From an uncultured Streptococcus sp. (lineage in GTDB: Bacteria; Bacillota; Bacilli; Lactobacillales; Streptococcaceae), in assembly GCA_963533195.1 (NCBI GenBank), contig CAUSOG010000002.1, forward strand, positions 18,853 to 82,852: a stretch of DNA of 64,000 bases. Reading direction: 5' to 3'. The translations under genes and the position numbers were made by a program. Numbering within the stretch: position 1 is the stretch's first letter; the number at the start of each line of letters is the position of its first letter. The notes beneath the pieces were generated by a model that saw only the letters and a list, made by a program, of their open reading frames with translations, did no database searches and was not told the DNA's origin. Shown here in pieces: positions 9,236-41,732 of this stretch.

Positions 9236-9281
9236 ACGCTAAATCTCCCGGTTCTATTTTCTTAATGCTAACTGAAGCACA

Positions 9282-10127: not shown

Positions 10128-10161
10128 ATTTTTTTCTTCTCCACTACTCGTATTCAATTAA

Positions 10162-10704: not shown

Positions 10705-10732
10705 AAGATTGCACTCCTTGCATAGTTAAAGC

Positions 10733-11143
10733 TTAATCGTTATTATTACGAAATGAATGTTCAGAAACCCATTTTGAGTAGCTTTTTAAATTTTGCTCAG
10801 ACAGTGATTCAACCGCTATTCTTACACACATTTCAACTGCTTCTTCAAGCGTAACAGCAAAATGATAACCGTTTAATCGTAAAAATTTTACTAAGACATA
10901 AAAAGCCGTTCGTTTATTAGCACTAGCAAAAACATGCTTTTTTATCAATTGAACAAATAAAATTGTCGCCTTATCAAATATTGATGGATAAAGAGGTTTT
11001 CCAAAAACAAATTGTTCAGGTAAGTTCACAATCATATTTAGTGCTGATGGACTAATCATCTTGATTTGTTCTTTTGGAGAATAGCGCTGAATAACTAAAG
11101 TATTAATCTTTTCAATTTGAATTTCTGTTAAATAGACTGTCAT
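10733..11143 (-). CDS. Type II TA toxin, Doc/Fic family
   Basis: HVFASANKRTA Fic/Doc-type motif; overlaps antitoxin stop. Confidence 0.88.
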   Translation of the reverse strand: MTVYLTEIQIEKINTLVIQRYSPKEQIKMISPSALNMIVNLPEQFVFGKPLYPSIFDKATILFVQLIKKHVFASANKRTAFYVLVKFLRLNGYHFAVTLEEAVEMCVRIAVESLSEQNLKSYSKWVSEHSFRNNND

Positions 11144-11376
11144 TTTTCCACCAAAGCTTTAAAAATATCGTTGTATTCATCAAAAATATTATCTAAATCC
11201 AATTCAAAAGATTCGTCCGAAATATAAGTAACCTGATTTTCAGTCTTTTCCGGAGTAAAGACAATTTCGCCACTCGGTAACAATTTAGCATCGTAATGCA
11301 CGCCACTCGGAATATTAAATTCACTTGGAATCGTTATTGTTATAGAATTCCCTTGTTTTCTAGTTTTTACTGCCAT
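11140..11376 (-). CDS. AbrB/MazE-type antitoxin
   Basis: KTRKQGNSITITIP swapped-hairpin N-terminus, acidic C-terminus. Confidence 0.88.
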   Translation of the reverse strand: MAVKTRKQGNSITITIPSEFNIPSGVHYDAKLLPSGEIVFTPEKTENQVTYISDESFELDLDNIFDEYNDIFKALVEK

Positions 11377-11494
11377 CTTGCTTCCTCCTAAGGGATATTA
11401 TAACAGATAATTACAGTAATTACAAAATAGAATAATCTTTCGACTTATCTTATTTAGAATACATCATGGGATTAAGATATTAGCTAAACACATC

Positions 11495-13252: not shown

Positions 13253-13296
13253 ATTTTTATCTCCTAGATTTCTCTATTTAAACTCATCACAACTTT

Positions 13297-13352
13297 ATGC
13301 AAACGATTCCATAATCTAGCCCTAGTATACTATTTTAAAAAAATGATTGCAA
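13297..13352 (-). promoter_or_regulatory. Promoter TTGCAA-N17-TATACT with downstream LacI-family (MalR/cre-like) operator
   Basis: ATGCAAACGATTCCAT at 13297-13312 resembles the MalR site GCAAACGTTTTCC; lies upstream of a maltodextrin enzyme. Confidence 0.6.
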
Positions 13353-13482
13353 GTTGTGGGCTAGTTTATGAGCAGGAGCTTATCTGTGCAAGTTAAAAAG
13401 CCTTGGAGATAAGGCTTAATAGTAGTTTCAATTTTGAGATTTCATTTAATTCTTTTCTTTTTCCAAATTGATATTCCAACCC

Positions 13483-13920
13483 TTATTCAGTATTATTCTT
13501 GTTCATATACCAACTTGGGACTAATCGGTTCATATAATCATACCATTCTAAAATTTCCTTAGCTTGATTTTGCATTACTGATACTTCTTCTTCTCCATAA
13601 GGAATAGCCCATGGAAGAGCTCCAATTAAGTTACTTAGAATGTAAACGGCAAGAAGTTTCCAAAATAAATCTGGAACTTTGTCATCAAAATATCCATTTA
13701 TCATACCTGATGCAAAAGAGGGAGATACTTGAGCTGACCACACAATACGATTGAACTCCTCCCAAGGATCTCCAAAGTCAAAACGATCAAAATCAATCAC
13801 ATAAATCTCACGATCCTCTCCAATCATGAAATTCCCAATATGATAATCACCATGTTGCAAAACTTGGGGTCTATTTTTTAGCAGTTCACGGTTTTCGTTC
13901 AAAAAATCAATGAAGACCTG
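13483..13920 (-). pseudogene. 5'-truncated aminoglycoside-phosphotransferase-family kinase
   Basis: Retains HGDYHIGN and IDFDR motifs; frame reads QVFIDFLNENR back to ~13920, then meets an in-frame TAA; N-lobe absent. Confidence 0.8.
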
Positions 13921-13984: not shown

Positions 13985-15610
13985 CTAAACCAAGTCGTTT
14001 AAGTCGATACATTCATCAAACAAAGATGCTAGTTCATCATTCAAATGATGAGTTACAAATAGTACTGTCTTACCCCTATCTTTTAAAATATCACGTTCGA
14101 TTTCCTTTCGAATTTGTTCGTCAATTGCAGACGTTCCCTCGTCAATAAGCCAGATTGGTTTGTCCTCTAAAAATAACCTTGCTAGCATAATTCGTTGCTT
14201 CTGACCAGTGGAAATATCAAGTTTAGTTTCAGATAAGATAGTATCTAAACCTTGAGGTAATGTATCAATCCAGTCCTTCAAATAGACCCGTTCTAAGACG
14301 CTATCTATATCTGATTTTTGTATACTTTTACCAAGGGTTAAATTGAAAAATAGTGATTCGTTGAATATATGATCATCAGAAGAAATATAGCTTATGCTCT
14401 CTTGTAAATTTGACAATGAACATTTCTCCGAATTATTGCTGATAAAATAAACATTTCCTTTTGTGGGATGTAATTCTTGATTAATTATCTTTAATAATGT
14501 TGATTTACCAATACCTGATTTTCCAATCATTGCATATTTACGATTAGCACAAAACTTCAATGAAAGATCACTAAATATTGATGAGTTGCTTCGTTCTAAC
14601 GATATATTATCTAAGATAATGCTCCCATTTAATTTTCTACCTTCAAGTGGTAACGAATTATCTACTTCTACTTCACGCCATTCACTATCAATATTTTCAA
14701 ACTTTTCAAAAATTTTATTTACTGACTTGAATTCTGCATAGTTTGCAGTTAGACCAGTCAAACCTGCAAAAATTATTGACGAAAAATACTGTGATGAAGA
14801 TACACCTCCCAGAGGGATTAGTTTAAGGAAATAAAGGCAACCTGCATGAATTAAAATAGCGATTTGACTAATAAAACTTGTACCATTTTGAACAGCCATT
14901 AAACCACCTAAAGTTTTAGCATAATTTATTTTTGCAACTGAATACCTATTCGCAAAATTAATAATTTTTGAAGTCATGAAAGAAATCTTATTATTATTCT
15001 TTAAATTCCTATAGCCCGATAATACGTCATCTACCGCTTGAACTAATTCTTCATTTTTTTCGGAAAAAATCAGAGCATTCTTATCCAGTTTTGAAGTAAA
15101 AATTTTTGGTAGTTTTATCATCGTAATAAGGAAAACTGTAATCGTGAACAACAACGAAAAATGAAAACTAAGAAATGCAATAATTGCAAACAATATATTT
15201 AGTGATTGCATTAACATTAGCTCTAATGTTTCAAATCCAAGATCACTTATTGTCTTAATATCATTTGTCATCCATGATAAGTAGGTAGACTTGCTTTTTT
15301 TCTCGTAATTTTCAATCCCTGCTTCTTCTAATTTTAATGAAATATCTTTTCTTATCTCATTACACATGGCTTGAATAGCTTTTTCATTTGCTTTTGAACC
15401 TTGATAAATTTGAACCACCCACAATATATTTACTAACAAAATTGCGGTACTGTAAATAATAAACTCTCTCAAGTTAAAATTTACCAGTGTTGTTATTGCT
15501 CTGGCACTAAGCATTCCATTTAAAAACACACAGAGTGAATTAATAAAAATCCAAAACAGCCAAATTAAATTTTCTTTCTTACATCTAATTAGATATGTCC
15601 TAATATTCAA
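13985..15610 (-). CDS. ABC exporter (TMD+NBD), LanT-like, no C39 peptidase domain
   Basis: N-terminal TM segments, GKSGIGKST, ISTGQKQR signature, LIDEGTS; TTG start overlaps lanC stop. Confidence 0.88.
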   Translation of the reverse strand: MNIRTYLIRCKKENLIWLFWIFINSLCVFLNGMLSARAITTLVNFNLREFIIYSTAILLVNILWVVQIYQGSKANEKAIQAMCNEIRKDISLKLEEAGIENYEKKSKSTYLSWMTNDIKTISDLGFETLELMLMQSLNILFAIIAFLSFHFSLLFTITVFLITMIKLPKIFTSKLDKNALIFSEKNEELVQAVDDVLSGYRNLKNNNKISFMTSKIINFANRYSVAKINYAKTLGGLMAVQNGTSFISQIAILIHAGCLYFLKLIPLGGVSSSQYFSSIIFAGLTGLTANYAEFKSVNKIFEKFENIDSEWREVEVDNSLPLEGRKLNGSIILDNISLERSNSSIFSDLSLKFCANRKYAMIGKSGIGKSTLLKIINQELHPTKGNVYFISNNSEKCSLSNLQESISYISSDDHIFNESLFFNLTLGKSIQKSDIDSVLERVYLKDWIDTLPQGLDTILSETKLDISTGQKQRIMLARLFLEDKPIWLIDEGTSAIDEQIRKEIERDILKDRGKTVLFVTHHLNDELASLFDECIDLNDLV

Positions 15611-16785
15611 CTTATGTCTCCTCTACAATTTATACCAAAAATCTCTTCACCAATAATTCTTCTTTTAAATTTGAGCGATAGAGCAACCAGTGCGATACCA
15701 AGTTTACCATCTAGTATTCCCCATTCGCTATATTCTGATAAAACCTCATTTTCAAAATAGTTTGATTCTATTAATTTTACAAATTCCTCTGATTCATCAG
15801 ACGTAATAACATCACAACACGAATAGAACGTGCCAGACAACCCATGACAAAAACTAACATTATTGGTTTTCTTTCTGCATCTAACTAATCTTTGAGCTTC
15901 ATCCAAAAGCATATTTAAAAGACTATCTTTAATCACATAATCATTATTTTTTAAAAAAATATAATGACCATACAGTCCATAACACCATGAATAATTTATA
16001 GTATCACTAGAATATATTGGAGTTATATTCATTTTTTCGTCTACTGTAATGTATTCCGAAATTCTAAAACTTAAGTTACTAAATCGTTTATAAACATTCT
16101 CAATAAAACTCAAACTATATCTATAAAAATTGATATTAGAGAAATCAAAAAATGTGAGTGAATTAAAAAGCGAAATAATTCCATGCGACATACCAAAATT
16201 TATAGGAATAGCCTCTTTGGAACGATTTTTAAAACTTTGTTGTCCTTCTTCTACTGTTGTCGCTATTTCATAAATTCTCAATTTATCAAAAATTTCTATT
16301 ATTTTTCCCATCAAATCATCCGGGAGACTGAACTGCCGATTATAGTTTTTTAAAGATGTAAAATAGATTAGTCCTCCCGCTAGTCCATAAATTATATCCA
16401 CATTATAGCAACTTTGAAAATCTTCTATCTTATCCTCCACAAAAGTTCTAATGATACTTTCAGCAACTAAATTTAATTCTTGTGATAAATATTCAAATAT
16501 TTTGTTATTTGAATACTTACACCATAAATTTAATACAAAAGCAAAACCTAGCGGACCAGACCATAAGCCTCTATTTTCCCTATTTACAACCAAATTTAGG
16601 TTCATTTTTCGTATTACACTAATAGCAAGTTCTTCGTAGTATATATCCTTATCTATTGAATATAGATTAAGTAGTAACAACAAGTATCCTGAAGCACCAT
16701 TTAGTAGAGAAATATCTTCAAAATTAGAAAAATTCTCTAAACAATCCTTAATTGATATCAATTCTAATTCCGTTTTTTGCCGCAT
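15607..16785 (-). CDS. lanC: Lanthionine cyclase LanC
   Basis: GMSHG, WCYG and FCHG (catalytic His and Zn ligands), repeated GxxG motifs; GAGG RBS inside lanB 3' end. Confidence 0.92.
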   Translation of the reverse strand: MRQKTELELISIKDCLENFSNFEDISLLNGASGYLLLLLNLYSIDKDIYYEELAISVIRKMNLNLVVNRENRGLWSGPLGFAFVLNLWCKYSNNKIFEYLSQELNLVAESIIRTFVEDKIEDFQSCYNVDIIYGLAGGLIYFTSLKNYNRQFSLPDDLMGKIIEIFDKLRIYEIATTVEEGQQSFKNRSKEAIPINFGMSHGIISLFNSLTFFDFSNINFYRYSLSFIENVYKRFSNLSFRISEYITVDEKMNITPIYSSDTINYSWCYGLYGHYIFLKNNDYVIKDSLLNMLLDEAQRLVRCRKKTNNVSFCHGLSGTFYSCCDVITSDESEEFVKLIESNYFENEVLSEYSEWGILDGKLGIALVALSLKFKRRIIGEEIFGINCRGDIS

Positions 16786-19627
16786 TAAGTACCTCTAAAA
16801 TATAGTTTCTATACCTAAATTCTAAATCTAAGTCACCAAATAATCTATTGAAGTGCATATGTAATAGACTATCCGCTAGCTGTTCGTATGGGACTGTTCG
16901 CAGATTTATTATTGATTTCAGTAAATCTTTACACTCTTTATATGATTTCAACCCTTGACATCTAGAATAATAGTTATTATTTCTCAATTCAGACTTTATT
17001 AAGTTAGCTTCAGATTTATCTAATTTATCGGATTTTTGTCGGAAAATAAATTCCTGATTTTCTATTTTATCTAAGAAAAGTTGTAATAAACCTATCGCTA
17101 CATAAACATTAAGACTTTTGAACTCAGTGTTGCTTAAACTTCCTTTTAATTTTAAAATATCTAAACATAACTTAGAATCCACCATAAAGAATTTTTCAAT
17201 TAAGTTATAATTGCCAGCTCCGTATCTTTCATACTCTCTCTCGTAGGGGCAAATAGAATAGTCATCAATGTACTCTAAAGTTAATGCTATACTAATAAAA
17301 GAAAAGACTTCTTGTAGAGAATTAGTACCATTCCCATGAAGATATATCCTCAACCTGATGTGTGGTCTATCATCTTGATACCTTATATAGAACCAATTAG
17401 AAATACTATTTGTTGAAACATAATCAGCTATGTACTCTAAAAGATAATTTTGTAAATTTTTAGAACAATATAATTTAACATAAAACCACCCTTCACCATC
17501 CAAAAGACTTTGAAATCTATCTTTATTATCTATAACAGGATTAATACGGTAATCACTAGCCTTTATATTATTATCAAATAAAGTAACTGTTAATTCAGAA
17601 GCAAATCTACCTTCTGGGGATCTACCATATATAAATCCTAAATCTTCATAAATTTCAATCATCTCCTCCCTTCTAAAGATTTCTTCCAATAATTCCATAT
17701 CTAGACGTCTAGTTATATCTAGGTTCAATATTTGATCATTTATTGCTAAAGCAAACTGACTAGGTACACCGATTCTATTTAAAAATTCCAACAAAGATTC
17801 AGAAGAACTCTCTTTATATAGCTTTTGATACAATGTCCACTTCTCAGGTATAATAATAATATTATTGAAAACAATTCTTTTTTGATGTAAAGGTGATAAT
17901 GATTCTAATTTTGATAAAAAGCCACCTATTCGATCGGTCTGTGAGTTAAGTAAACCTAAAAATTTTATATAATCATTGCTCAAATCTAAGTTCATCATAC
18001 CTCTCATATCCACAATGATTCTATTCCCACTATTATCATGTAAGTAAAATTCATAATTGCTTGATATTCCAACATATACATCTGATAAAGATAAATCCAT
18101 ATCGTTATTCTTATATGTGTTGATAATTATATTATTTTTATAGCGATTCTTATTTGCTGTAACTATATTCTTTATCTTTTTATCTTTGGGATAGTATATG
18201 ATTCCATGAGTAAAAGAGGGAATTTCATTCAACTCTAGAAAATCAAATCGCCCATGATAACCTCTTGGAGTCCTAGAATACGCTGAACGTCCTAACGAAA
18301 ATATAATGTTTTTATCACTACCATATATGTTAAAATTCAAATCGAATCCTCTTATATTTTCATTACGATTTGCATTTTTTAACTTTGCTAAATTAAATAC
18401 TTCTTCTTCATCAAATTCATACAAAGCCTTTAAATCATCTTCCCATAACTTTTCTTCTCTTAGATTTTGATCAATTACAATATCCTTACTAAATGGAGAA
18501 CCTAGTCCTTTAATATCATCAAATAATTCAACAAGATTTACAGACTTATAATAACCATATCGCTCAGAGAATATGTCCTTATATTGTTCAAGCTGGACTC
18601 TGTCTCTACTATAGGACTTATTAAAATCAGACATAACAAAATCCGCAAATTTTGTTATATTTCGAATTTTATCATTTGATAATGAAATTGAGTTTTCAGT
18701 TGATAACTCTTCATTGATTATATATTTTTCAGAAATGTCTATCTCTTGTAATAGATAATCTATTTTTTCTAAAATATCTAGACTTTTACTTTTAGAATAT
18801 GAATCCATTAATTCCAAAAGACTACCTAAGTATTCAATAGATTTTAAATGTTTACGTGATGTCTCTATAAGTCGCAAGACAGTGTCAATATTCATATCAA
18901 GAGGATATATATTGAGAATTATAAGCTTTTGTTTAAGAAGCTCTTTTAGAAAATCTATTACCAACGATTCGGAATATTGCGGGAATTCAGAAGTTAAAAG
19001 AATAATCAAATCTGATAACGTATAACTGTTCTTCGTTAAAGAATCAATAAGCAAGTTTAGCACATCATTTTTGTAAAAGTATAATCTATTTCCCTCACTT
19101 GCATCTTCAATAATCGATGGTAGATAAAAATCAAAAAAGTTTCTTCTATTTTGTGTTGCAGCGTTCAAATAACACTTCAAATAACTTTTTTTAAAATCTA
19201 ATATATCCAATATTTCATAGTAAAAATAATCTAAAATTTCGGGCGCTAAATATATATGACTTCTTGTCTTTCCTAATATTTTTAAACAATCTTGACCTGA
19301 TTTTTTATGTAAACTCGCCTTACCAATCTTTGCAAAACTTCCAAACGGAGTTGCTCTATAGGCTGCTCTTAATATATATTTATAAAGTGATAGACAAATT
19401 TTTCTTTGTTTTTTAATACTATACTTTCTAATATTTTGCAAATTCGAAATAAACACTGGTGAGGCTATATAGATTGCTTTTTTTAATTCTTCGTTTACTA
19501 ATACTTGATTAACCAGATGAATATAATCTTCTTTTACGAAGTAATGGTCTAATTCTGGTATCAATTTCTCTATATCGTTAATATGGAAATTACTTACTCT
19601 TACTATAGCATCATTGGATATTATCAT
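16748..19627 (-). CDS. lanB: Class I lanthipeptide dehydratase LanB
   Basis: 959 aa; YILRAAYRATPFGSFA, WFYIRYQDDRPHIRLR, YEREYERYG, LLHMHFNRLFG. Confidence 0.95.
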   Translation of the reverse strand: MIISNDAIVRVSNFHINDIEKLIPELDHYFVKEDYIHLVNQVLVNEELKKAIYIASPVFISNLQNIRKYSIKKQRKICLSLYKYILRAAYRATPFGSFAKIGKASLHKKSGQDCLKILGKTRSHIYLAPEILDYFYYEILDILDFKKSYLKCYLNAATQNRRNFFDFYLPSIIEDASEGNRLYFYKNDVLNLLIDSLTKNSYTLSDLIILLTSEFPQYSESLVIDFLKELLKQKLIILNIYPLDMNIDTVLRLIETSRKHLKSIEYLGSLLELMDSYSKSKSLDILEKIDYLLQEIDISEKYIINEELSTENSISLSNDKIRNITKFADFVMSDFNKSYSRDRVQLEQYKDIFSERYGYYKSVNLVELFDDIKGLGSPFSKDIVIDQNLREEKLWEDDLKALYEFDEEEVFNLAKLKNANRNENIRGFDLNFNIYGSDKNIIFSLGRSAYSRTPRGYHGRFDFLELNEIPSFTHGIIYYPKDKKIKNIVTANKNRYKNNIIINTYKNNDMDLSLSDVYVGISSNYEFYLHDNSGNRIIVDMRGMMNLDLSNDYIKFLGLLNSQTDRIGGFLSKLESLSPLHQKRIVFNNIIIIPEKWTLYQKLYKESSSESLLEFLNRIGVPSQFALAINDQILNLDITRRLDMELLEEIFRREEMIEIYEDLGFIYGRSPEGRFASELTVTLFDNNIKASDYRINPVIDNKDRFQSLLDGEGWFYVKLYCSKNLQNYLLEYIADYVSTNSISNWFYIRYQDDRPHIRLRIYLHGNGTNSLQEVFSFISIALTLEYIDDYSICPYEREYERYGAGNYNLIEKFFMVDSKLCLDILKLKGSLSNTEFKSLNVYVAIGLLQLFLDKIENQEFIFRQKSDKLDKSEANLIKSELRNNNYYSRCQGLKSYKECKDLLKSIINLRTVPYEQLADSLLHMHFNRLFGDLDLEFRYRNYILEVLNAAKNGIRIDIN

Positions 19628-19773: not shown

Positions 19774-19908
19774 TTAATGACAGCTTGGTGTTGAAGAACA
19801 TCCACCTGAACCGCCTGTATGCTTCACTCTCTGTTCTGATTGTCCAATAGACAATGTTTTAGTATCAATTTTAAGTGTTACTAACAACTCGTTTTTTACA
19901 TTTTCCAT
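19774..19908 (-). CDS. Lanthipeptide precursor LanA (44 aa; not in ORF track)
   Basis: AGGAGG RBS; MENVKNELLVTLKIDTKTLSIGQSEQRVKHTGGSGGCSSTPSCH*; Cys-free leader and Ser/Thr/Cys-rich C-terminus; immediately upstream of lanB. Confidence 0.9.
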   Translation of the reverse strand: MENVKNELLVTLKIDTKTLSIGQSEQRVKHTGGSGGCSSTPSCH

Positions 19909-19966
19909 CTGGAATACCTCCTATATTTTTTTAAAACTATGTGAGCAATCTGTTTTCTACCATAGC

Positions 19967-20010
19967 TTTCCACTAAGTATTAATCTGATTACGTTAATAT
20001 TTAGTGGAAA
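19967..20010. repeat. 17-bp inverted repeat between pheromone gene and lanA
   Basis: TTTCCACTAAGTATTAA-N10-TTAATATTTAGTGGAAA, one mismatch. Confidence 0.8.
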
Positions 20011-20055
20011 ACCAGGGGAATAATTTAATTATTACATCTCCCCAATATTTCCTAT

Positions 20056-20184
20056 CTATTTAGTTTGACCATTAGCTGGACCTGGATCAACCCCATTATA
20101 GACTGAAGATCGTGTAATAGGACTCCTTACAAATGCAAAAGAGAGCAACAAAGTAATAATAAAGAATTTAGATAAGCGTTTCAT
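20056..20184 (-). CDS. PhrA-like RRNPP signalling peptide precursor (42 aa; not in ORF track)
   Basis: AAGGAG RBS; MKRLSKFFIITLLLSFAFVRSPITRSSVYNGVDPGPANGQTK*; basic plus hydrophobic signal-like N-terminus; C-terminal NGVDPGPAN parallels PhrA SNGLDVGKAD. Confidence 0.82.
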   Translation of the reverse strand: MKRLSKFFIITLLLSFAFVRSPITRSSVYNGVDPGPANGQTK

Positions 20185-20422: not shown

Positions 20423-22349
20423 GAGTCTGGGACAATAGTCCCTTTGCTACAAAAAAAGCAACGGATTTTTTTCGTTGCTTTTTGCATGGTTGCGATGGTC
20501 TTGCTAAAATGGAATTGCTCAATTAAACATTTAGAAAGGCTATCCCATGCACATTCACTATAACAAAATTCAAACGACTTTACCACTAGAACTTGCTTGC
20601 ATTTTACCACAATACCATATTGTCTTTACCATGGAAAAAGTGGTGAATGCCTTGAAGTAATGATGATAGAAAATATCGCCATGCAGTACTTAACAGGACA
20701 GTTGCTTGTCAGTTACCACACCGTCAATCGCTTTCGAGTCGCTGTGGGGATGGAAAACCTCATTCGTGATCTTTTCATTGACCTCAATCTTCGTTTAAAA
20801 TTAGAAGAGTTTGTGACTTTATACTTAACAAAAATCTAAATTGTACGTATAATTGAAGTATGACAAAAACAACATTTACTCCAGCGGACAAAACACTTCT
20901 CACAGAAGCACTCAAAGATAAGAAAAACGTGCGTTTTCATAAACGCATTCAGTGTGTGCTATTTCGGATAGACGGCTTAAGCTATCGCAAAATCGCCGAA
21001 TTAACAGGGCTTTCCCCTCAAACGGCTTCCAATCAAGTGTAGCGCTACCAAGACCAAGGACTAGCTGCACTCTTAACAGACAAGCGTGGTGGGAGCTTCC
21101 GTTATTACATGACTCATGATGAAGAGATTGATTTTCTTGCAGAGCAGTTCAAGAAGGCGAGCGAAGGTGAGTGGTTAACCATTAAATCTCTTCACGAAGC
21201 CTATCAAGCCAAGATTGGTAAGAAAACGACTAGAGAGGGATTTTATGCTCTTCTCAAGCGACATGGTTGGCGAAAAATTATCCCCAGACCGGAACATCCA
21301 CAGAAAGCAGACGCTCAAGCAATTGTGACGTCTAAAAATAAAATCCTTGTACGAGAGCACATGCAAACGATTGCCTCATAAAAGAGTGCGACTGCTTTAC
21401 CAAGACGAGGCCGGATTTGGACGAATTAGTAAACCAAGTGCTTGTTGGGCTCCAAAAGGAATCAGACCCAATGTTCCTTGTCACCATGTTCGTGAATTTC
21501 GCTATTGTTATGGAGCCGTCGATGCGCATACAGGAGATGCCTTTTTCATCATTGCAGGCGCTTGTAACACCGCTTGGATGAACGAATTTTTACAGCAATT
21601 ATCTGCCTATTATTCTGATAGTTACCTGATTTTGGTCATGGATAACGCTACATGGCACAAGTCTCAGGCTTTGGATTTGCCAGAAAATATCGAGTGTACA
21701 TTTATTCCTCCCTACACGCCAGAAATGAATCCCATTGAGCAAGTTTGGGCGGAGATACGAAAGCGTGGATTCAAAAACAAGGCCTTCAAATCTCTAGAAG
21801 AAGTCATTTTGAAGTTAGAAGCAGTGATTCGAAACTTAGAAACAGAGTTTCTGAGGAGGATTGTTCACAGAAAGTGAATTTGTCCAGAATAGATTTTTGG
21901 TGAGTATTAGATTGTCTGTTTATTGATGGCACTATGATTGAAGCCAACGCCAACAAGTATAGTTTCGTATGGAAAAAGGCCACAGACAAGTTTTCCGTCA
22001 AACTTCAAGAACAGATACAGGTCAATTTCCAAGAAGAAAAATCACCCCCCTTATCCATCAGGCGATTGCGCTGGATGAAAAAGAACCTATTGCCTCAGAA
22101 CAGTTGACCGAGTTCGCTCAACGTAAGATTGATGCGGAACCTGTCTTTGGGCAGATAAAGGCTTGTTTGGGTTAAAAGAGATGTAATCTGAGAGGTAAGC
22201 GTCAAGTGAAAATTGACATTAGTTTAGTGCTCATGACCAATAATCTCCTTAAATACAATAAGAAAACGGTTCAAAATTAAAAAGCTAAAGTTCACATAAT
22301 TGGGAACCTTTAGCTTTTTTGTGACTGAGAACTATTTTGTCTCAGACTC
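20423..22349 (+). mobile_element. Degenerate IS1182-family element interrupted by an IS630-family element
   Basis: Terminal IRs GAGTCTGGGACAA / TTGTCTCAGACTC; fragments MHIHYNKIQTTLPLE, YHTVNRFR, DCLFIDGTMIEANANKYSFVWKK, QRKIDAEPVFGQIK; internally deleted. Confidence 0.85.
20822..21906 (+). mobile_element. IS630-family insertion sequence (transposase pseudogene)
   Basis: IRs TACTTAACAAAAATCTA / TAGATTTTTGGTGAGTA flanked by TTA; HTH ORF with in-frame TAG at 21040-21042; DDE ORF with QDEAGFG, MDNATWH, PPYTPEMNPIEQVW. Confidence 0.9.
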
Positions 22350-22405: not shown

Positions 22406-23293
22406 CTATAGAGACGAAAAATTTTCATACAAGTATCTACTTAACTCTAAACTCATCTTCTCGTTGTTAGCTAGTTGAAAAAGAAACTGTGATCGCTGAT
22501 AATATGCTTTTACCTGTTCTTTCTCGTGAAACCCTTCGCTAATATTACCTAATAAACAGTATAATTCTGCCAATAGGAACCTCGACTGATAGTCGTTACA
22601 GACCTCAATAGTTTCAAGAGTTTCTATAATTGCCTGCTCTGTTCTATTACCTAACAACCATAATTGCCTACAATAATTATATCTAATTTTGATTAAGTTC
22701 TTAAAGTTCTCTATTTTAGATAAATCGCTTCTTTTCAACTCAGCCACTATTTCTATAAACTCTTGTTCTAATTCTATAAAGTTTGAACCCTTTCCTTCCA
22801 ATAAAAAATTTAATAATGTATTCTTTAGATACAGATGAGAGTCTATTTGACTACCTATTTGAGAAATTATTTTTCTCAATTTTTTCAAACCCTCTTTTTG
22901 TTTTTTATCATAATAGAACAAAACTAACGATTCAACCCAAGTAAGATATATTTTATCAGAAAGAGAATATTTTATCGATTTTTGAGTAGATAATTCCAAA
23001 TCAAGTATATACTTAACTGAGGCAAAATCCTGTAATTCAATGTGTTTTTCTAATATTTCTTTCAATTGTGTAACCTGAGAAGTCTCTACACTAATTGTCT
23101 TATCATAAAAATAGTCTAATGTAACATCTAATCTCTGAGCCAGTGAATGTAATAAATCTGAATTTGGAACATATTTCCCCTGTTCAATTCTACTAATTTT
23201 AGCCTGCTCACATAATCCCTGAGCAAGTTCACTTTGTGATAAATGAAGCTCTAAACGACGCTCTCTCATTCTAGTTGCTAGTAAACTATTCAC
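22406..23293 (-). CDS. TprA/PlcR-like RRNPP transcriptional regulator (XRE HTH plus TPR-like helices)
   Basis: RRLELHLSQSELAQGLCEQAKISRIEQGKYVPNSDLL..LDYFY; 295 aa, helical C-terminus; GTG start with AAGGAG RBS. Confidence 0.85.
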   Translation of the reverse strand: MNSLLATRMRERRLELHLSQSELAQGLCEQAKISRIEQGKYVPNSDLLHSLAQRLDVTLDYFYDKTISVETSQVTQLKEILEKHIELQDFASVKYILDLELSTQKSIKYSLSDKIYLTWVESLVLFYYDKKQKEGLKKLRKIISQIGSQIDSHLYLKNTLLNFLLEGKGSNFIELEQEFIEIVAELKRSDLSKIENFKNLIKIRYNYCRQLWLLGNRTEQAIIETLETIEVCNDYQSRFLLAELYCLLGNISEGFHEKEQVKAYYQRSQFLFQLANNEKMSLELSRYLYENFSSL

Positions 23294-23595: not shown

Positions 23596-25494
23596 CTACC
23601 AAATTTTAACTCTATCAATTTCACATCTCCACATAGAATCTCCTTGAGCAACTCCAAATGTATCATGAAACTCCTTAAGATTAGATAGTGGGACATTAAC
23701 TCTTTCCTCATTTGGAGAATGAACATCTAAAACTTCTTGAATTTCTCCATACTCCTTATTCAATATCGAGCGATGACATCTTGCAAAGGTTGTAAAGAAA
23801 TCTTCCAAACTATACTCTTCTCTACCCATCAATGAATTAAGTGAACAAATCAATCCTGCTAAGTCAGCTATATCTTCAGAAATAGTCATCTTATTAACTA
23901 AATTTTTATCTTTTACAAGATATTGTTTATTGAGTTTGCTAGAAATTTTCATCAACTCTTGATAATCAGAATCTAACCACCAGCTTCCTCTATTCCCATC
24001 CGAATCAAACATTGAACCATTTAAGTCAAAAGCATGTGAGATTTCATGTGCAATCAGAGTTCCTAAGCCACCATAATTTTGAGACAAAGTATAGTCAGTC
24101 GAAAAAAATGGTTCATTAAGTATCGCAGCTGGAATAATTATCATATTTCTTCTAAAATCATATAAAGCATTTACTGTATGTGCTGAAATACTCCACTGAT
24201 TTCTATCAGTTGGTTTATTCCATTGTTTCCACATATAGCTAATAGAATTTGCGAGAATCATTTGTATATTTTCAATTAAAGTTTTATCCAAATTTATTTT
24301 TTTAAATTGATATGTAGGTGGCAAATTACTTGGCTTCCCAACTTGAATATTCATTTTATCTAATTTTTCTAAAGTTATTTTTTTAGTACTAGCTGATAAC
24401 CAAGTATTTGCTAAAAGCTCTTTTCTATACTCTTCTATAAGATCTTCAACTATTCTTTCAACTCTTAAAAAAATATCCTTTGAAAAAAAATTATCTGCAT
24501 ACCAATTTCCTATAGCTTGCATATATAAAGACTGTGCTAAATAGAATGCTTCCTTATCTTTCTTTCTTACTTCTTTGATTCCGTAAAGGTATCTTCCAAA
24601 TTCACCAGAAGAAATGCGAATCTCTTCAGTTAGATAAGCAGCGTAAGTAAGGATAACCTGATAAATCAGCAATGATTTTATATATTTCCAGTTCTCAGAA
24701 CAAAAAATTTTTCTTGAATTTTTCCAAAACTTCTCTTCAGCTACTATGATAACATCAGGTATTTCTCCTATTAAATTATAAAAGTATCTTCCAAAATCAA
24801 TTTCTTCATTCCAACTATTGAACTCAGAGAAGGGGTATATATTATATATTTTGTTATAATCGGACATTTCTTCTTTAGAAATATTTAACTCAGATACTAT
24901 TCTATCTAAATAGATAATATCATCCAGCATGCTCTCTGCTTCTTCTAATTCGAATCCAAAATTTGAAATTAATTTAAGCTGGCATTGTTTCCATTTTTGA
25001 ATTAGATTATTGCCATATTGATATTGATCTGTATAAAATAGTGTATCTGGCAATATAGTTTTTAGTCCCCAAGCCCAAAGTACATTTGTATTTGACTTTT
25101 TAAAATCTGGCTCAATTGAAAATGGCATTAAAGATGGATTACCAGATAACTCTAACTCAGGTAATTTGGCAATAAAATCAGCAAAGCTCTCTATGCCTTG
25201 ATACAAATCTAAAATTTTTTTAATTGGCTCTATGCCAATCTTATCTCTTTTTTCAAAGTCAGATATGAGTGTATAGTATTTAATAAATTCAACCATGTAA
25301 TCATCACTAGCAATAAGTTCAGTCATATTTGTAAAACTATCTTGAGATACAGACAAAAGCTTTTGAATTTTTTTTTCAATATCTACTTGAATTTCTGTAA
25401 ATGAATCCATTTCAGCTAAATCAGATGGTATTATGGCCGACTTTTCCCACTTCTCATTTACAAATCTATAAAAATTATTATTTGCAGTCATCAT
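23596..25494 (-). CDS. M13 family zinc endopeptidase (PepO/neprilysin-like), island-borne
   Basis: NFYRFVNEKW, VNALY, HEISHAFD, EDIADLAG, DVHSP; no signal peptide; AT-rich. Confidence 0.92.
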   Translation of the reverse strand: MMTANNNFYRFVNEKWEKSAIIPSDLAEMDSFTEIQVDIEKKIQKLLSVSQDSFTNMTELIASDDYMVEFIKYYTLISDFEKRDKIGIEPIKKILDLYQGIESFADFIAKLPELELSGNPSLMPFSIEPDFKKSNTNVLWAWGLKTILPDTLFYTDQYQYGNNLIQKWKQCQLKLISNFGFELEEAESMLDDIIYLDRIVSELNISKEEMSDYNKIYNIYPFSEFNSWNEEIDFGRYFYNLIGEIPDVIIVAEEKFWKNSRKIFCSENWKYIKSLLIYQVILTYAAYLTEEIRISSGEFGRYLYGIKEVRKKDKEAFYLAQSLYMQAIGNWYADNFFSKDIFLRVERIVEDLIEEYRKELLANTWLSASTKKITLEKLDKMNIQVGKPSNLPPTYQFKKINLDKTLIENIQMILANSISYMWKQWNKPTDRNQWSISAHTVNALYDFRRNMIIIPAAILNEPFFSTDYTLSQNYGGLGTLIAHEISHAFDLNGSMFDSDGNRGSWWLDSDYQELMKISSKLNKQYLVKDKNLVNKMTISEDIADLAGLICSLNSLMGREEYSLEDFFTTFARCHRSILNKEYGEIQEVLDVHSPNEERVNVPLSNLKEFHDTFGVAQGDSMWRCEIDRVKIW

Positions 25495-25671
25495 ATCTCC
25501 TTGAGTTTTGATAAAATTTTCAGATACAATCTTATCATAAAAGAATTAACAAAGCAACAAAATAGAAAATATAGATATACTTTTTCAAAGAAATATGTTA
25601 AAATAAACAAAACAAATCTCTATTTATTTAAAAATAATATATCAAAAAACAAGAAAGTAGTGTTATAGACA

Positions 25672-26628
25672 ATGATTAGTGCTTTTTCAATTGACGATAA
25701 AAAAAGTAACATCGCTCGAATTATTTCTGAACACCGTAGTGAATACATACTCGGATTTCAAAATAATGATACCCAAAAAATCCGCAAACTTAGTTTAAAA
25801 AATCAGCTTTATCATATAGGAGACTTTATTAAGTATTCTGTTATAAATAACTCTATTTCAAATATAGAATTGTTACCTCGGAAAAATGTAATTTGTAAAT
25901 CTAGTAATACAACTAAAAAAAGCTATAACTTCTCTGAATCTAATCAAATTTTAGCCACAAATGTTGATCAACTCTTTATATTTATTCCTCTTGATAAAAA
26001 TTTTTCTCTGTCAAAAATTGAAAGATATATTTTAGTCTTTTCTCAACAAAATGTTAATGTAACAATTGTGCTAAGTAAAAAGGATCTTTTTTCAAATTAT
26101 AAAGAATATCTGTCTAAAGTTAAACAATTATATCCTAAGATTAATATTTGTCCTATCAGTTTATATGACGAATTATCTATCAAAAAATTCAAAGAATTAC
26201 TAATTCCTGGTAAAACAGGTATGTTTATTGGCTCATCAGGAGCAGGAAAATCTAGTTTACTTAATCACCTACAAACAAATTATACTGCAAGAGTTAATAA
26301 TGTTCGAAATGACTATAAGGGAAAACACACAACAACTAGTAGTTTAATCATTTTCTGTCCAGAGATAGAATACAATATTATTGATACTCCTGGTTTTAAA
26401 GGTATTGATACAACTTTAGATATTGATAAGAAAATATTGTTTGAAGAAATAGAGGAATGTGCTAAATATTGTAAATTTAACGATTGCTTACACCTTACTG
26501 AACCTAAATGTGCAGTAAAAGAAGCGGTCAAAAATAATATTATTAGACCAGAAATACTGGAAAGATATCACTATAACATTAAAAAGCTCGAATTATTATC
26601 TAAAAGAAGAGCCAGCTGGAGATTATAA
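25672..26628 (+). CDS. RsgA-family circularly permuted GTPase, probable accessory paralog
   Basis: ATNVDQ, SKKD (G4), GSSGAGKSS (G1), GKHTTT, DTPG, CKFNDCLHLTEPKC zinc finger. Confidence 0.9.
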   Translation: MISAFSIDDKKSNIARIISEHRSEYILGFQNNDTQKIRKLSLKNQLYHIGDFIKYSVINNSISNIELLPRKNVICKSSNTTKKSYNFSESNQILATNVDQLFIFIPLDKNFSLSKIERYILVFSQQNVNVTIVLSKKDLFSNYKEYLSKVKQLYPKINICPISLYDELSIKKFKELLIPGKTGMFIGSSGAGKSSLLNHLQTNYTARVNNVRNDYKGKHTTTSSLIIFCPEIEYNIIDTPGFKGIDTTLDIDKKILFEEIEECAKYCKFNDCLHLTEPKCAVKEAVKNNIIRPEILERYHYNIKKLELLSKRRASWRL

Positions 26629-26677
26629 TTTACAAAAACACACTCACAGTTGCCTCATCAAAAACTTTAATTGCTTA

Positions 26678-26730
26678 ATTTCAACTATTAGGAAAGAATT
26701 TAAAAATTGTACTTTCCTAATAGTTGAAAT
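26678..26730. terminator. Perfect 19-bp inverted repeat after the RsgA-like gene
   Basis: ATTTCAACTATTAGGAAAG-N15-CTTTCCTAATAGTTGAAAT. Confidence 0.7.
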
Positions 26731-26926
26731 ACAAAAGCTTCTAGAGAATGAACTGAATTACTATGAAAAACTGTTTTCCTTTTTGCTGTAGGGTACTTTG
26801 AATTTTTAAAAAAATTCAAATAATGGGATTGATAAAATGAAAAAAGCTATTAGAATATTTGATATTTTAGGGGAAGAACATTTGAAAATTCAATACAGTG
26901 AACACTATGCTAATCTCATAAATTAA
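26712..26926 (+). pseudogene. C-terminal remnant of an Rgg/GadR/MutR-family regulator
   Basis: Across two A-run frameshifts reads FLIVEIQKLLENELNYYEK/TVFLFAVGYFEFLK/NSNNGIDKMKKAIRIFDILGEEHLKIQYSEHYANLIN*. Confidence 0.65.
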
Positions 26927-27164
26927 AAATTTTATATCGTTGTACTTACCAACAATGAATTCAAAGATCATACCATTATCCAGTTTCTCTCTTATTACAA
27001 GAGACAGTATTTACTTATCCTCGGGAAACTCTTTATTACAGTATTATTTTTTTTACCTACTAGTAGTCTATGGTAATAAAACCACATATTTTAATCAAGT
27101 TTTCAGTATTATTCCAATAACCTCAACTTGAGTGCTCGCTTTTATACATCCCCACCACAAAGCA

Positions 27165-27213: not shown

Positions 27214-28629
<1,416 letters not shown>

Positions 28630-34215: not shown

Positions 34216-35382
34216 CTAAAAGTTCTTGACAAATTCCCGATGGCGAGCTACCGCATCCTTTAGTTCTTCCAGATTGTCCGAAGAGAACTTCTCCAGAACT
34301 TCGGTGGCTAAAACTGTTGCCACCACGCTTTCCATGACAACACCCGCCGCTGGCAGAGCCGTAGGATCGCTCCGTTCCACTGTCGCCTTATAAGGCTCGT
34401 GGGTCTCAATATCCACGCTCATCAGTGGCTTATAAAGAGTTGGAATGGGCTTCATAACACCTCGCACCACGATTGGCTGACCATTGGTCATACCACCCTC
34501 AAAGCCGCCTAGATTATTGGTCCTGCGAGTGAAGCCATCTTCCTCAGACCAGAGGATTTCATCCATGACTTGACTGCCCTTGAGACGACCGGCTTCAAAG
34601 CCCACGCCAAACTCAACTCCCTTGAAAGCATTGATGGACACGACTCCTTGAGCAAGCTTGGCATCCAGCTTCTTGTCCCATTGGACATAGGAGCCCAGAC
34701 CAACCGGAACACCGCCAACGACAGTCTCAATGACACCACCGATGGTATCCCCGTCTTTCTTAATCTGATCAATGTAGGCCTTGATTTCTTCTTCACGCTC
34801 GGGATTGACAATGGAAACCTCTGACTGTGCAGCTCTTTCCTTGATTTCTGCTACAGTCAGATTGTCTGGTACATCGATATCAATACCGCCAAAGGTCACG
34901 ATATGACTGGCAACTTCAACACCGATTTCTTCCAGCAAGCGCTTGGCGACTGCTCCGACCGCTACACGCATGGTCGTTTCCCGTGCAGAAGAGCGCTCCA
35001 AAGAATTCCGTAAATCGTCAAAGCGGTATTTCATCCCGCCTACCAAGTCAGCATGGCCAGGGCGTGGTTTGGTAATCTTGCGCAGTCCTTTTTTCTTTTC
35101 ATCCACATCTGCCGCACTCATAATCTCCAGCCACTTCTGATGATCGAGATTTGTGACATTGAGGGTAATCGGACCGCCCATGGTCAAGCCATGCCGAACT
35201 CCAGAGGTAATCTCAACTTGGTCGCTTTCAATCTTCATACGGGCACCACGGCCGTAACCACCCTGGCGGCGCTTGAGCTCAGCATTGATATAGTCAGCGG
35301 TCAAAGAAAGACCAGCCGGCACTCCCTCAATAATAGCTGTCAGGCGTGGTCCGTGCGATTCTCCTGCTGTTAAGTATCTCAT
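34216..35382 (-). CDS. aroC: Chorismate synthase
   Basis: [27 protein letters not shown]. Confidence 0.97.
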
Positions 35383-35473
35383 ACATTTTCTCCTATTTCT
35401 GGGATGGAAAGATATGGACAGCCTGTCTATTTTTCATCCAAACTGTCCAATCGTCTTAAACTCCATCTGGCAC

Positions 35474-36541
35474 TTATTTCTTCAGAAATTCTTTCATCTC
35501 TTCCAGCGGAATCTGGTGAATACTAGCCGACCCTAGCTCGGGCACAAGTACCAGCTTGATAGAGTTGCCTCGAGCTTTCTTATCGTGGGTCAGAGCCTGA
35601 TAGAGAGCATTCTCATCCCAGGGCTGGTAAGCCACCGGCAAGCCAAACTTCTGACACATACGGATGATATTTTCTGTAATTCCGGCTGGCATAAGACCTT
35701 GCTTTTCAGCGACACTAGAAACCTGTACCATACCAATCGCCACAGCTTCACCATGCATGACCTTGCCATATCCTGCTGTCGCTTCGATAGCGTGCCCAAT
35801 AGTATGGCCGAAATTCAGATAGAGGCGAACGCCATTATCCAGCTCGTCCTCGACCACAATCTTACGCTTTACATCGCAGGAATGGTAGATGATACTCTCC
35901 GCATGCTCCAAAATCGACTCTGGACTGCCATCCATTTCTGAAAGCTCGTCCCAGAGTTCCTTATCCTCAATCAAGCCGTACTTGACTACCTCGCCTATAC
36001 CTTCGATCAATTCACGCTGGCCCAAAGTATGCAAGACTTCTGGGTCAATCAGAACTCCGTCAGGCTGGGTAAAGGTCCCGACCATATTCTTGGCCCAAGG
36101 CGTATTGACGCCTGTCTTACCACCGATAGAGGAATCCACTTGAGCTGTCAGACTGGTCGGAATCTGCACGAAATGAACGCCCCTCATGTAAGTCGAAGCG
36201 GCAAAGCCCGCCAAATCACCGACGACTCCGCCTCCCAAGGCTACAATCCCGTCGCTGCGGGTCAGACCAACCTTGACCAAAAACTCATAGACCTTGTTGA
36301 CCGTCTTTAAGTTCTTGCTGGCTTCACCCTCTAAAAAGTCAAAGACATAGGCCTCAAACCCAGCCGCTTCCAAGCTCAGCTTGACCTTTTCCGCATAGAG
36401 TCTAGCCACTCGATTGTCCGTGACGATGACTACCTTCTGAGGCTGCCACAGCTGACGCAGCCAACTTCCAGCCTGAGATAGAGACCCCTTTTCGATGAGA
36501 ATATCATAGGGATGGTGCGGGAGATTCACATTCAGTTTCAT
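35474..36541 (-). CDS. aroB: 3-dehydroquinate synthase
   Basis: [30 protein letters not shown]. Confidence 0.97.
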
Positions 36542-36551
36542 AAGCTCCTCC

Positions 36552-37406
36552 TTATTTATACAATTCTTCTAAACACTGCCAAATTTCCTGACTAGGCATG
36601 GTCTTTCCGGTCCAAAGATTAAAGGCTTCTGCTCCTTGATAGAGCAGCATACCAAGTCCATTGACCGCTGTGACATTTTGATTTCTTGCCCATTTGAGAA
36701 AGTGCGTTTCAAAAGGTTGGTAGATAACATCCGCAACTAAAATCTGGCTAGGCAGCTCAATCTGTTCAGGCAGGGGCATGCTGATGCCATCCATACCTAG
36801 ACTAGTCCCATTGACCAGAAGGTCTGATTGGTTTATTTTATACTGCAAACTATCCGCATCCTCCAAGGTTAAAACTTGGATACGACTCTTGGTTTGGTGG
36901 CTGATAGCTACCATCTTTCTGACAGTCTTCTCATAGGAAGCTTGCCGAGTAAAGACGAAAATTTCCTCTGCATTGTCCAAAGCTGCTTGAGCAATAATAG
37001 CTGTCGCTGCTCCACCTGCTCCCAAAATCGTCATTTTTTTGCCCCGAATAGCAAAAGAAGGCAAGCTCTTAAAAAATCCCTTGCCATCTGTGTTATAACC
37101 AACTAAAATTCCATTTTTATTCACAACCGTATTGACTGCTCCGATAAGGCGGGCACTGACATCCAGCTCGTCCAGATAAGGTATCACTTCCTGCTTATAG
37201 GGCATGGAAAGATTGACACCAAACATATCGTATCTGCGGATATTTTCTATACTGGCCTGCAGATCCTTCGCTTCCACTTCCCAAGCTAGATAGACACCAT
37301 TGACATCAGTCTTTTCAAAAGCCATATTGTGAATAAGAGGAGAAATACTGTGCTTAATTGGCTTGGCAACCACAGCAGCCATGCGGGTGTGGCCATTAAT
37401 TCTCAT
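36552..37406 (-). CDS. aroE: Shikimate dehydrogenase
   Basis: HSISP, NLSMPYK, GAVNT, NTDG, GAGGAA, GLGML. Confidence 0.95.
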
Positions 37407-38073
37407 TCAAAATCTCCTGGATTTTCTTCATATTGTTCAGAGAAATCTGACCAGGTGCTGACGCCATCTCCTGGCTGGCAAATGACCAGCTGGAACCTGT
37501 CAAGTCAGCCGCAATGCGTGAAATCTTACCGATTTTTCCCATGGAAATGGTGACAAAATCCTGCTCAGGATTCAAAGTCTTGAAACCGCGAGTATAGTTC
37601 ATCAAGTCCAGCACATCCTGCTCATTGTGAGCCATGACAGAAACCTTGACCACCTTAGGGGTCAGAGAAGTAAGCTCAGACAGGATTTCCATCATATTTT
37701 CAGGTGTCTCCTCAAAGTTGTGGTAGCTCAGCACCAGATTAGGAAACTCCAGCATTTCTTCAAATTTCCCCTTGTGAGAGAAATATTCAAAGTCGATATA
37801 ATCCGGCTGGTAAAAACTGGCTACTTCCTTGATGAGATCTACATATTCATCATCGGACAGTTCGATTTCTCCGCCTTCCTGACGGGTCCGCAAGGTGAAA
37901 ATCAATTCACGTCCGGCAAATTTTTCAAAAATAGCTGGCGCAACATTTAAAATGTCATCCTTGGCCAGAAAATCTGCCCGCCATTCAATAATATCCGCAT
38001 CTTCGTAGCGTGATACATCAATTTCTTGAGCTTCTTCTAAACTCTTGGGCATTACAGAAACGACTAATTTCAT
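37396..38073 (-). CDS. aroD: Type I 3-dehydroquinate dehydratase
   Basis: EWRAD, FTLRT..EGG, SYHNF, APGQ. Confidence 0.95.
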
Positions 38074-39233
38074 TGGTCCACCTTTATTGTAAATACCTTG
38101 AGGTAATTACTGCTCCCGTCTTTTTTATTATAGACAAAGTCTGCTGGCAGGCCATACTTCGCAAGATAGCGGTGCTTTCTGCCGGCAAAACCTTTTTCAA
38201 TTTCTTGTTTAAACTTACTTTTGGAAAGATTGGCTGCATTGGTACTTAAAATCATGATTCCCTGAGGATTCAGGATTTCCAAAGCTTGTGCAACCAAACG
38301 ATGATAATCTTTAGCAACCGAGAATGTCCGCTTCTTATTTCTAGCAAAGCTAGGCGGATCTATCACAATGACATCAAAGCTTAGTTCGTGGCGCTTAGCG
38401 TACTTGAAATAATCAAAGACATCCATCACCTGAAAGCGATGCTGATCCAGTGTCAAACCATTAGCCAGAAAATGAGACTCTGACAGCTCACGGCTTCGCT
38501 TGGCCAAATCCACTGAGACTGTCTGACTGGCACCGCCCATAGCTGCTGCTACTGAAAAAGCAGCTGTATAGGAAAACATATTGAGTAAACTTTTACCAGC
38601 AGCCAGACCATCTACCAGACTAGCACGCACATCGTGCTGATCCAGAAAGATACCGGTCATGAGACCGTCATTCAGAAAAACCCGATAGCGAACACCGTTC
38701 TCCAAGACTGTGAAAGTTTCCGGTGCTTCCTCTCCATAGAGATGAGCCGATTCGTAGTTCAAACCCTTGAAACGAATCTTTTCATAAGCTCCCTGAATCT
38801 CTGGGAAAACCTTAGCGAAGGCTGTCAGAATCTGCTCCTTGATAGCAAAGACAAAGTCATTGTACCAAGAAAAAAGCGCAAAGTCATTGTAGAAATCCAC
38901 CGAGAAGCCACCGAAGCCATCCCCCTCTTGATTAAAGAGTCGAAAGGCTGTCGTGTCAGACGAATGGAAATAAGTAGAACGTCTGCTCTTAGCCTGCTCA
39001 AAGAGGTCTTGAAAAAAATCCGAGTTCAGCTCTACCTTCTTCTGGGAAATCAGCCAGCCTACTCCCTTATTCTGCGGAGAGAGATAAGCTGTGCCTAAGA
39101 ACTTTCCCTGACGGTTTTGCAGCTCCACACATTGATTCTGAAGCGAAAGAGCGCCAAAATCCTTTTTATCTAATAAAAGAATGCCCTTTCTCAGTTTTTC
39201 TTCTGCCTGTTGAGTAACAGTAAGTTTATTCAT
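38070..39233 (-). CDS. Class I SAM-dependent rRNA methyltransferase (RlmI-like)
   Basis: [28 protein letters not shown]. Confidence 0.88.
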
Positions 39234-39483
39234 AAATTATATTATACCAAAGATTGTGAAAATTCTCAAAACATATTTTACATTTGAGTTAATAAAAGAT
39301 TTCACAAACGAGTGCAAAACGACTATAAACCTCTCCATAGAGGGGATAAGGCTTTTATAGAAATATTACAATTTCGCCGATTTAAAATATCTCAAATGCA
39401 GCTCAAATTTTCCTTAACTGGAGAAATTATGTTATACTTAGAGGAGAAAATTTTTAGGAAATAAGACAAGGAAGTAACTTTTT

Positions 39484-41679: not shown

Positions 41680-41684
41680 ATAGC

Positions 41685-41717
41685 AAAAGCCTTAAGTCCA
41701 ATGGACTTAAGGCTTTT
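41685..41717. terminator. Bidirectional terminator between ltaS and pullulanase
   Basis: AAAAGCCTTAAGTCCA-A-TGGACTTAAGGCTTTT. Confidence 0.85.
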
Positions 41718-41732
41718 CTTGTAGCTAATAAC

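Follow-up and report, generated by a model that had tools for sequence, protein, structure and literature searches.

A distant accessory RsgA GTPase in a streptococcal lanthipeptide island and its recurring ABC exporter neighbours

The window analysed here is a 64,000-nucleotide stretch of DNA from an uncultured Streptococcus sp., in which an island of lanthipeptide genes also carries a gene for RsgA, a GTPase of ribosome biogenesis. What such a gene does in such a place is the question raised by the locus. An earlier note had taken it for a probable paralog that may confer self-resistance by protecting 30S maturation, with an unrelated passenger as its other option. The reading favoured here, at a probability of about one half, is that of a horizontally acquired accessory RsgA which travels with exporters of translation inhibitors and would act as an optional 30S-rescue factor under translation stress.

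The RsgA gene and the lanthipeptide island

The open reading frame at 25672–26628 on the plus strand is unbroken and encodes a 318-residue protein (TIGR00157, 135.4 bits against a curated cut-off of 100; Pfam RsgA_GTPase, E 6e-37) that combines an OB fold, a circularly permuted GTPase domain and a zinc finger, the layout by which RsgA is recognised. The complete G4-G1-G2-G3 motifs and zinc finger described in the earlier note were all located in this product, with SKKD (G4) at residues 135–138, GSSGAGKS (G1) at 187–194, GKHTTT (G2) at 217–222 and DTPG (G3) at 238–241, and with C267/C272/H274/C280 as the zinc site. His-219 of the GKHTTT motif aligns to the switch-1 histidine, His248 of the E. 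coli GQHTTT motif, which is at least 90% conserved in a 57-row alignment and is named as catalytic in E. coli RsgA (PMC5499641). The AlphaFold model (57-row alignment) has a mean pLDDT of 86.6, and RsgA/YjeQ structures make up all of its 15 best fold matches. The three-domain layout, the permuted G motifs, the switch-1 histidine and the zinc site are common to the island protein and the housekeeping RsgA/YjeQ/CpgA proteins of E. coli (5NO2, 7BOI), T. maritima (1U0L) and B. subtilis (1T9H), with TM-scores of 0.54–0.74. In contrast, identity to these solved members is only 20–25%, and 26% to the core copy of the host, the first residue of G4 is Ser where the aligned solved RsgAs have Asn, the gene does not lie beside rpe/thiN, and the subclade to which the protein belongs conserves a K-x-x-N-x-T-x-K stretch at the OB-fold end.

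The GC content is ~0.27–0.32 from ~13,900 to ~27,100, the insertion-sequence remnant excepted, with a step at ~27,100, and the island so delimited holds lanT, lanC, lanB, lanA, a signalling-peptide gene, IS630 remnants, an HTH/RRNPP-type regulator, pepO and rsgA; the 3′ end of the core gene rlmD/rumA (27214–28608, minus strand, TIGR00479) borders it. On the minus strand lie an ABC exporter, LanT (13985–15610; 541 residues, assigned by Pfam and family comparison), a LanC cyclase (15607–16785; 392 residues, LANC_like), a LanB dehydratase (16748–19627; 959 residues, Lant_dehydr_N and _C) and, from the open reading frame list, a predicted LanA precursor of 44 residues (19774–19908). Its C-terminal HTGGSGGCSSTPSCH is the same in L046, a Streptococcus caprae locus (the same locus as G400), and is identical except for the last residue in the genome G097. 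A predicted signalling-peptide precursor of 42 residues with a hydrophobic N-terminus (20056–20184, minus strand), which presumably resembles PhrA, has a perfect TTGACA-17-TATAAT promoter and is matched by homologues at the corresponding position of L046 and G097. Insertion-sequence remnants at approximately 20597–22210, absent from L046, include an IS630 transposase fragment (21347–21877, plus strand) and are followed by an HTH regulator of RRNPP type (22406–23293, minus strand; 295 residues, HTH_3), whose G097 homologue (40% identity) matches RNPP_C. The 632-residue M13/PepO-like endopeptidase (23596–25494, minus strand) is an extra copy, the two further M13 genes of the genome encoding proteins 38% and 28% identical to it.

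An RRNPP-type regulator and a secreted signalling peptide directly upstream of lanthipeptide genes are shared with the S. pneumoniae lanthipeptide loci under TprA/PhrA control; unlike those loci, the island has class I (LanB/LanC) enzymes, its regulator and peptide genes are in tandem rather than divergent, and pepO and rsgA are added (PMC7595303). The window (19774–20184) and G097 (L216:15782–16174) together represent a small family of class I lanthipeptides whose core, rich in glycine and serine, is conserved, and the paired signalling peptide ends in G-x-D-P-G-P-A-N in both. The predicted core was not found in the papers searched. The genome of the window has a second class I lanthipeptide cluster (G000:C7 ~34,900–41,900; L252:4886–11891, minus strand), which encodes a 999-residue LanB-like protein, a 235-residue unknown protein, a 417-residue LanC-like protein and a 563-residue ABC protein, adjoins an ISL3 transposase gene and has no adjacent RsgA. 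Between addB and the island, an accessory stretch (window 8924–13902) contains genes for a DUF4300 protein, a DUF1706 protein, a Doc toxin with a probable antitoxin, a neopullulanase-like amylase and a truncated APH-fold kinase.

Codon use in rsgA is AT-rich like that of the lan genes, as the earlier note had observed: GC3 is 0.18 in rsgA, 0.21–0.26 in lanBCT, the regulator and pepO, and 0.48–0.53 in the flanking core genes, the genome median being 0.46, and only 3 of 1526 long open reading frames of the genome reach 0.18 or less. The divergent arrangement with the M13 gene was likewise described correctly, the intergenic region common to rsgA and pepO (25495–25671) measuring exactly 177 bp. 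That shared promoter region, together with the regulator that adjoins rsgA in the window, L046 and G358, would suit a helper in production or regulation, where the GTPase keeps up the supply of ribosomes once the quorum-controlled cluster is on, or resets the signal with PepO, and has no protective role. However, pepO stands beside a subclade RsgA only in the window and L046/G400, 2 of 22 loci, most subclade loci are without a biosynthetic gene and the literature searched offered no precedent, which leaves a helper of this kind highly improbable.

The rsgA gene lies 5.8 kb from lanA on the opposite strand, outside the lan transcription unit. A candidate extended −10 element, TGnTAAAAT (25596–25604, plus strand), picked out by eye and absent from the promoter-scan output, may serve it; L046 has the same element and G1206 has TGnTATAAT at the matching place. 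Just 3′ of rsgA a stop-interrupted frame (window 26660–26930, plus strand) resembles, by eye, the C-terminal remnant of an Rgg/MutR-type regulator, and the homology of L046 to the window stops at 26667.

Origin, distribution and transfer of the gene

The check for a separate core rsgA proposed in the earlier note was run, and a core copy is present on contig C1 in the usual rsgA-rpe-thiN order, which rules out that the island gene is the sole rsgA of the genome. The island gene neither lies in such an arrangement nor encodes a protein that groups with core copies, as would a housekeeping orthologue. In a quick tree of 96 rows it falls within a 45-row subclade with a long stem (SH-aLRT 99), which falls together with other second-copy RsgAs, away from the streptococcal core copies. 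A careful tree of 27 rows supports the subclade at 100/99 and rejects a joint clade of the subclade with streptococcal core RsgA (p-AU 0.0004). Relative to the other second-copy RsgAs the subclade is nested in the quick tree and a sister group in the careful one. Because of the 26% identity to the core copy and the p-AU of 0.0004, a recent duplication of host rsgA is ruled out, and the island RsgA is a distant xenolog, foreign in origin, from a small, well-supported Firmicute subclade of accessory RsgA. Thus, of the probable paralog that had been claimed, the second copy stands and the duplicated host gene does not.

With the accessory second RsgAs of Bacilli and Streptomyces, of which SCO6149 of the WblC regulon (left out of the RsgA tree) is an example, the island protein shares a side of the tree away from the core copies, and like them it is an extra, non-essential copy; a link to translation stress has been suggested for those proteins (PMC7157823). 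In contrast to them, it belongs to a long-stemmed subclade of its own, is shorter and recurs beside ABC exporters and on mobile DNA, and its gene displays neither an RNHCP neighbour (no match among the island open reading frames) nor a conserved upstream ORF (none seen by eye in the ~65-nt leader of the window, L046 and G1206).

The subclade is a rare one: in samples that overlap, it was found in 8 of 401 genomes of the genus Streptococcus, in 9 of 401 genomes sampled from the order and 4 of 401 sampled from the class, as well as in 9 of 131 genomes of family f4 and 1 of 106 of family f3. It comprises ~19 clusters at 50% identity above the score step, with no fused forms among its representatives. 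The copies are broken at 3 of 22 loci (G246, G338 and G543), all three without the LanT-family exporter and two of them beside a Tet(46)-like exporter pair. Decay after separation from the module was considered for these copies and set aside, the 90% cluster that holds two of them having intact 318-residue members. Three subclade genes (L043, L035 and L174 of G381, G338 and G543) are located in the phoH-ybeY-dgkA(-era) region among other genes of 30S maturation, directly upstream of ybeY in G381.

The L046 locus contains the whole module in the same order, at 91–95% nucleotide identity and without the insertion sequence. As the module is placed there between a relaxase/mobC pair on one side and an integrase on the other, it is the cargo of an integrative and conjugative element. 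Compared with L046, the island rsgA has a dN/dS of 0.15, which rules out a pseudogene, and a dS of 0.22, within the 0.21–0.29 of five other module genes (dN/dS 0.11–0.24). Thus, rsgA is under purifying selection and has been transferred jointly with the lan module. A fragment 85% identical to the 3′ end of rumA (L037:12565–12688) lies 1.2 kb from the regulator-rsgA-exporter module of G358 and suggests that this module also arrived on an element using rumA. Viral-contig scans with RsgA, P0006 and P0124 as queries gave no match, and plasmid and phage searches returned distant relatives only. A study on RsgA and T4 phage has reportedly been made.

Biosynthesis genes and exporters around the subclade

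Neighbourhoods were examined at 22 subclade loci in 21 genomes, most over ~10 kb on each side, those of G1206 (only 160 bp upstream), G565, G586, G573 and G747:C10 being shortened by contig ends. The lanB or lanC genes are near the subclade RsgA at three of them, the window, G400 and G747:C10, and absent nearby from 19. The presence of homologues independent of lan clusters, which the earlier note had itself named as telling against its proposal, is thus the situation at most loci, and a consistent co-occurrence with the LanB clade, which it wished to see checked, did not emerge from the genomes either. Among 401 genomes 12 have LanB matches; the nine with a distant LanB are all without subclade RsgA, which accompanies two of the three close LanB clusters, those of the window, G400 (90%) and G097 (43%). 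G097, a single contig at 100% completeness, has the regulator, the signalling peptide, intact lanBCT and a lanA whose predicted core is that of the window but for the last residue, with no subclade RsgA and no adjacent pepO. An obligate link of RsgA to the LanB clade is ruled out by G097 and the 19 loci. As this sister cluster shares the predicted core and lacks a subclade RsgA, the paralogue is not required by this type of lan cluster, provided that G097 makes its peptide. Close LanC proteins are also encoded by numerous contigs labelled S. parasanguinis and S. intermedius.

These counts bear directly on specific self-resistance, in which the small lanthipeptide would enter cells and block the 30S subunit or the housekeeping RsgA, with the paralogue as immunity protein. 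Such a role is favoured by the transfer of rsgA with the lan module under selection, by a same-strand lanA-lanB-lanC-lanT-rsgA run in G747:C10, which comes from a distant family and is independent of the window, and by enzyme-free cassettes of exporter and rsgA in G1139/G573 and G358, which would then be orphan immunity modules. It also draws on the missing lanFEG genes: no lanFEG-like open reading frame was found in the island and no TIGR03733 match in the genome, so that the statement of the earlier note on lanI and lanFEG is correct for lanFEG; proteins of the LanI type vary too much for exclusion by profile. However, the lanB and lanC genes of G747:C10 are fragmented and its precursor is free of cysteine, five subclade loci pair with an unrelated exporter, G097 does without the GTPase, and the part of a RiPP review considered here puts lanthipeptides at the envelope and names no ribosome-directed one (PMC8183687). 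Specific self-resistance therefore appears unlikely, and the island RsgA is probably not a required immunity gene of this lanthipeptide cluster. The claim of the earlier note survives in that a second copy is present, selected and moves with the lan module; it fails in that this copy is no host duplicate and in that most loci and G097 separate it from the biosynthesis genes. A similar division is seen against the target-duplication genes exploited by ARTS and psi-footprinting (PMC9290621), with which the locus shares the presence, within a biosynthetic island devoid of lanFEG, of a translation-related gene in addition to its housekeeping copy. Unlike those genes, rsgA is not derived from the host, is not obligatory for the cluster and is mostly found without it, so that consistent co-occurrence with biosynthetic genes is lacking (3 of 22 loci; two of three close LanB clusters). 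The ARTS table of that paper marks rsgA in one column of three, the first, and gives it no cluster number (PMC9290621).

The commonest neighbour of the subclade is instead the LanT family of the window. A member lies within ~10 kb at 7 of 22 loci (the window, G400, G358, G747:C10, G671, G573 and G1139), which represent five branches from the base to the tip of the subclade and three gene orders, and the linkage is kept across proteins only 33–56% identical. In the window the exporter is 10 kb from rsgA on the opposite strand, in G358 the order is regulator, rsgA and a split exporter, and in G671 the exporter is a fragment. A regulator-exporter-rsgA cassette without any biosynthesis gene lies between transposases in G1139 and is near-identical to that of G573, which belongs to another family. 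RsgA and exporter are probably adjacent in a further, eighth lineage (87 sequences of RsgA, 84 of the exporter), as indicated by accessions that nearly follow on each other (MGR5847635/MGR5847637) and by 4 of 15 contig sizes in common; equal contig sizes count as hints only, because P0042 and P0157, whose adjacency had been hinted at in this way, are 36 kb apart in G381. Five further loci (G381, G338, G543, G056 and G1157, from two families) adjoin one orthologous heterodimeric exporter of a Tet(46)/BmrCD-like kind, 49–85% identical, placed upstream of rsgA at three loci and downstream at the other two. Among families it matches Tet(46)A/B best, at 656–835 bits and below the cut-off of 1250, and its best solved relative is B. 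subtilis YheI/YheH; antibiotics acting on protein synthesis have been described as inducers of BmrCD (PMC4191407).

None of 88 other RsgA loci has the LanT family, lanB or lanC, and none has the second exporter pair (E<=1e-100). This contrast is overstated because the control, which includes the exclusively distant RsgAs of a metagenome scan, consists mostly of distant taxa, with only 12 Lactobacillales loci of 20 kb and only 39 of 88 having 3 kb on both sides; five Flavobacteriaceae loci are also part of it, and the two of these that were examined group with core copies. Both exporter families are in turn found without subclade RsgA, in G097 and as unlinked copies in G246 and G381. The stand-alone LanT-family members of the latter two (L247:7665–9263 and L248:6264–7844; 40–41% identical, with host-like GC) have no peptide genes seen around them and are possible orphan exporters.

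The subclade RsgA recurs beside two exporter families and is probably no random passenger. This weakens the option of an unrelated passenger kept open by the earlier note, one of the two families being the LanT family of this very cluster. A broader form of that option would have an ordinary accessory RsgA, once captured beside exporters, carried on mobile DNA as a gene useful to the host and unconnected to the cluster. Consistent with it, neither exporter is nearby at 10 of 22 loci (G1206 among them), where the neighbours are unrelated, several subclade copies have a host-like GC of 0.42–0.47, rsgA has its own promoter-like site and diverges from the cluster, the G097 cluster lacks it, related accessory RsgAs occur frequently (in 120 of 401 Bacilli genomes at E<=1e-62) and RsgA/exporter co-divergence is not significant (rho 0.29, p 0.29, six pairs). 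Under passive carriage, however, reshuffling should break the linkage, and that to the LanT family survives three gene orders and deep divergence, just as that to the Tet(46)-like pair survives upstream and downstream placement in two families. Such a hitchhiker is rather unlikely on this balance.

A proposed role under translation stress

A general aid under translation stress is likelier than required immunity, because the relatives mostly adjoin peptide or drug exporters and not peptide-making enzymes. By analogy with E. coli RsgA, the paralogue would bind the 30S decoding region through its OB-fold loop and hydrolyse GTP with the switch-1 histidine H219, and under translation stress it may re-mature or clear 30S subunits. 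Judging from the gene neighbours, the exporter would lower the intracellular level of the inhibitor and the GTPase would meanwhile restore the affected subunits. Known RsgA sits on the decoding region of the 30S subunit and helps to resolve trapped assembly intermediates (PMC5499641), and one of the two RsgA paralogues of S. coelicolor is among the WblC-activated, tetracycline-responsive paralogues (PMC7157823). In the searches run, which covered few subscription journals, no paper was found on RsgA in a RiPP cluster or on this subclade, and no shown function for any second RsgA copy. The subclade was thus not found described in the literature searched, and its recurring exporter partnership keeps a protective role likely.

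Second RsgA copies are common, and within them the subclade offers a compact handle, being mobile, under selection and found again and again with two exporter families; one resembles a pump for tetracycline, a 30S drug, and the other serves a lanthipeptide not found in the papers searched. If the paralogue protects 30S subunits, a ribosome-assembly factor joins the protection proteins. A bolder proposal, which we regard as doubtful, is that the 15-residue glycine/serine-rich class I lanthipeptide inhibits the 30S subunit or its maturation inside the cell, and that the RsgA subclade and the matching exporter together provide a two-part immunity, which also spreads by itself as an orphan cassette. 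For a lanthipeptide, action on the 30S subunit would be out of the ordinary. Were the two-part immunity true, RsgA would join the ribosome-protection proteins as a new type, with HflXr as its parallel on the 50S subunit, and would serve as a genome-mining marker for 30S-directed peptides. The contribution of RsgA is directly testable in the natural pair of clusters that have the same predicted core, one with and one without the GTPase. Downstream of the sister lan cluster, the G097 genome (L216:4685–9403) contains a zeta toxin gene and, from Pfam matches, a pair of genes for an OLD-family nuclease and a UvrD helicase, which we take to resemble a Gabija-type defence system.
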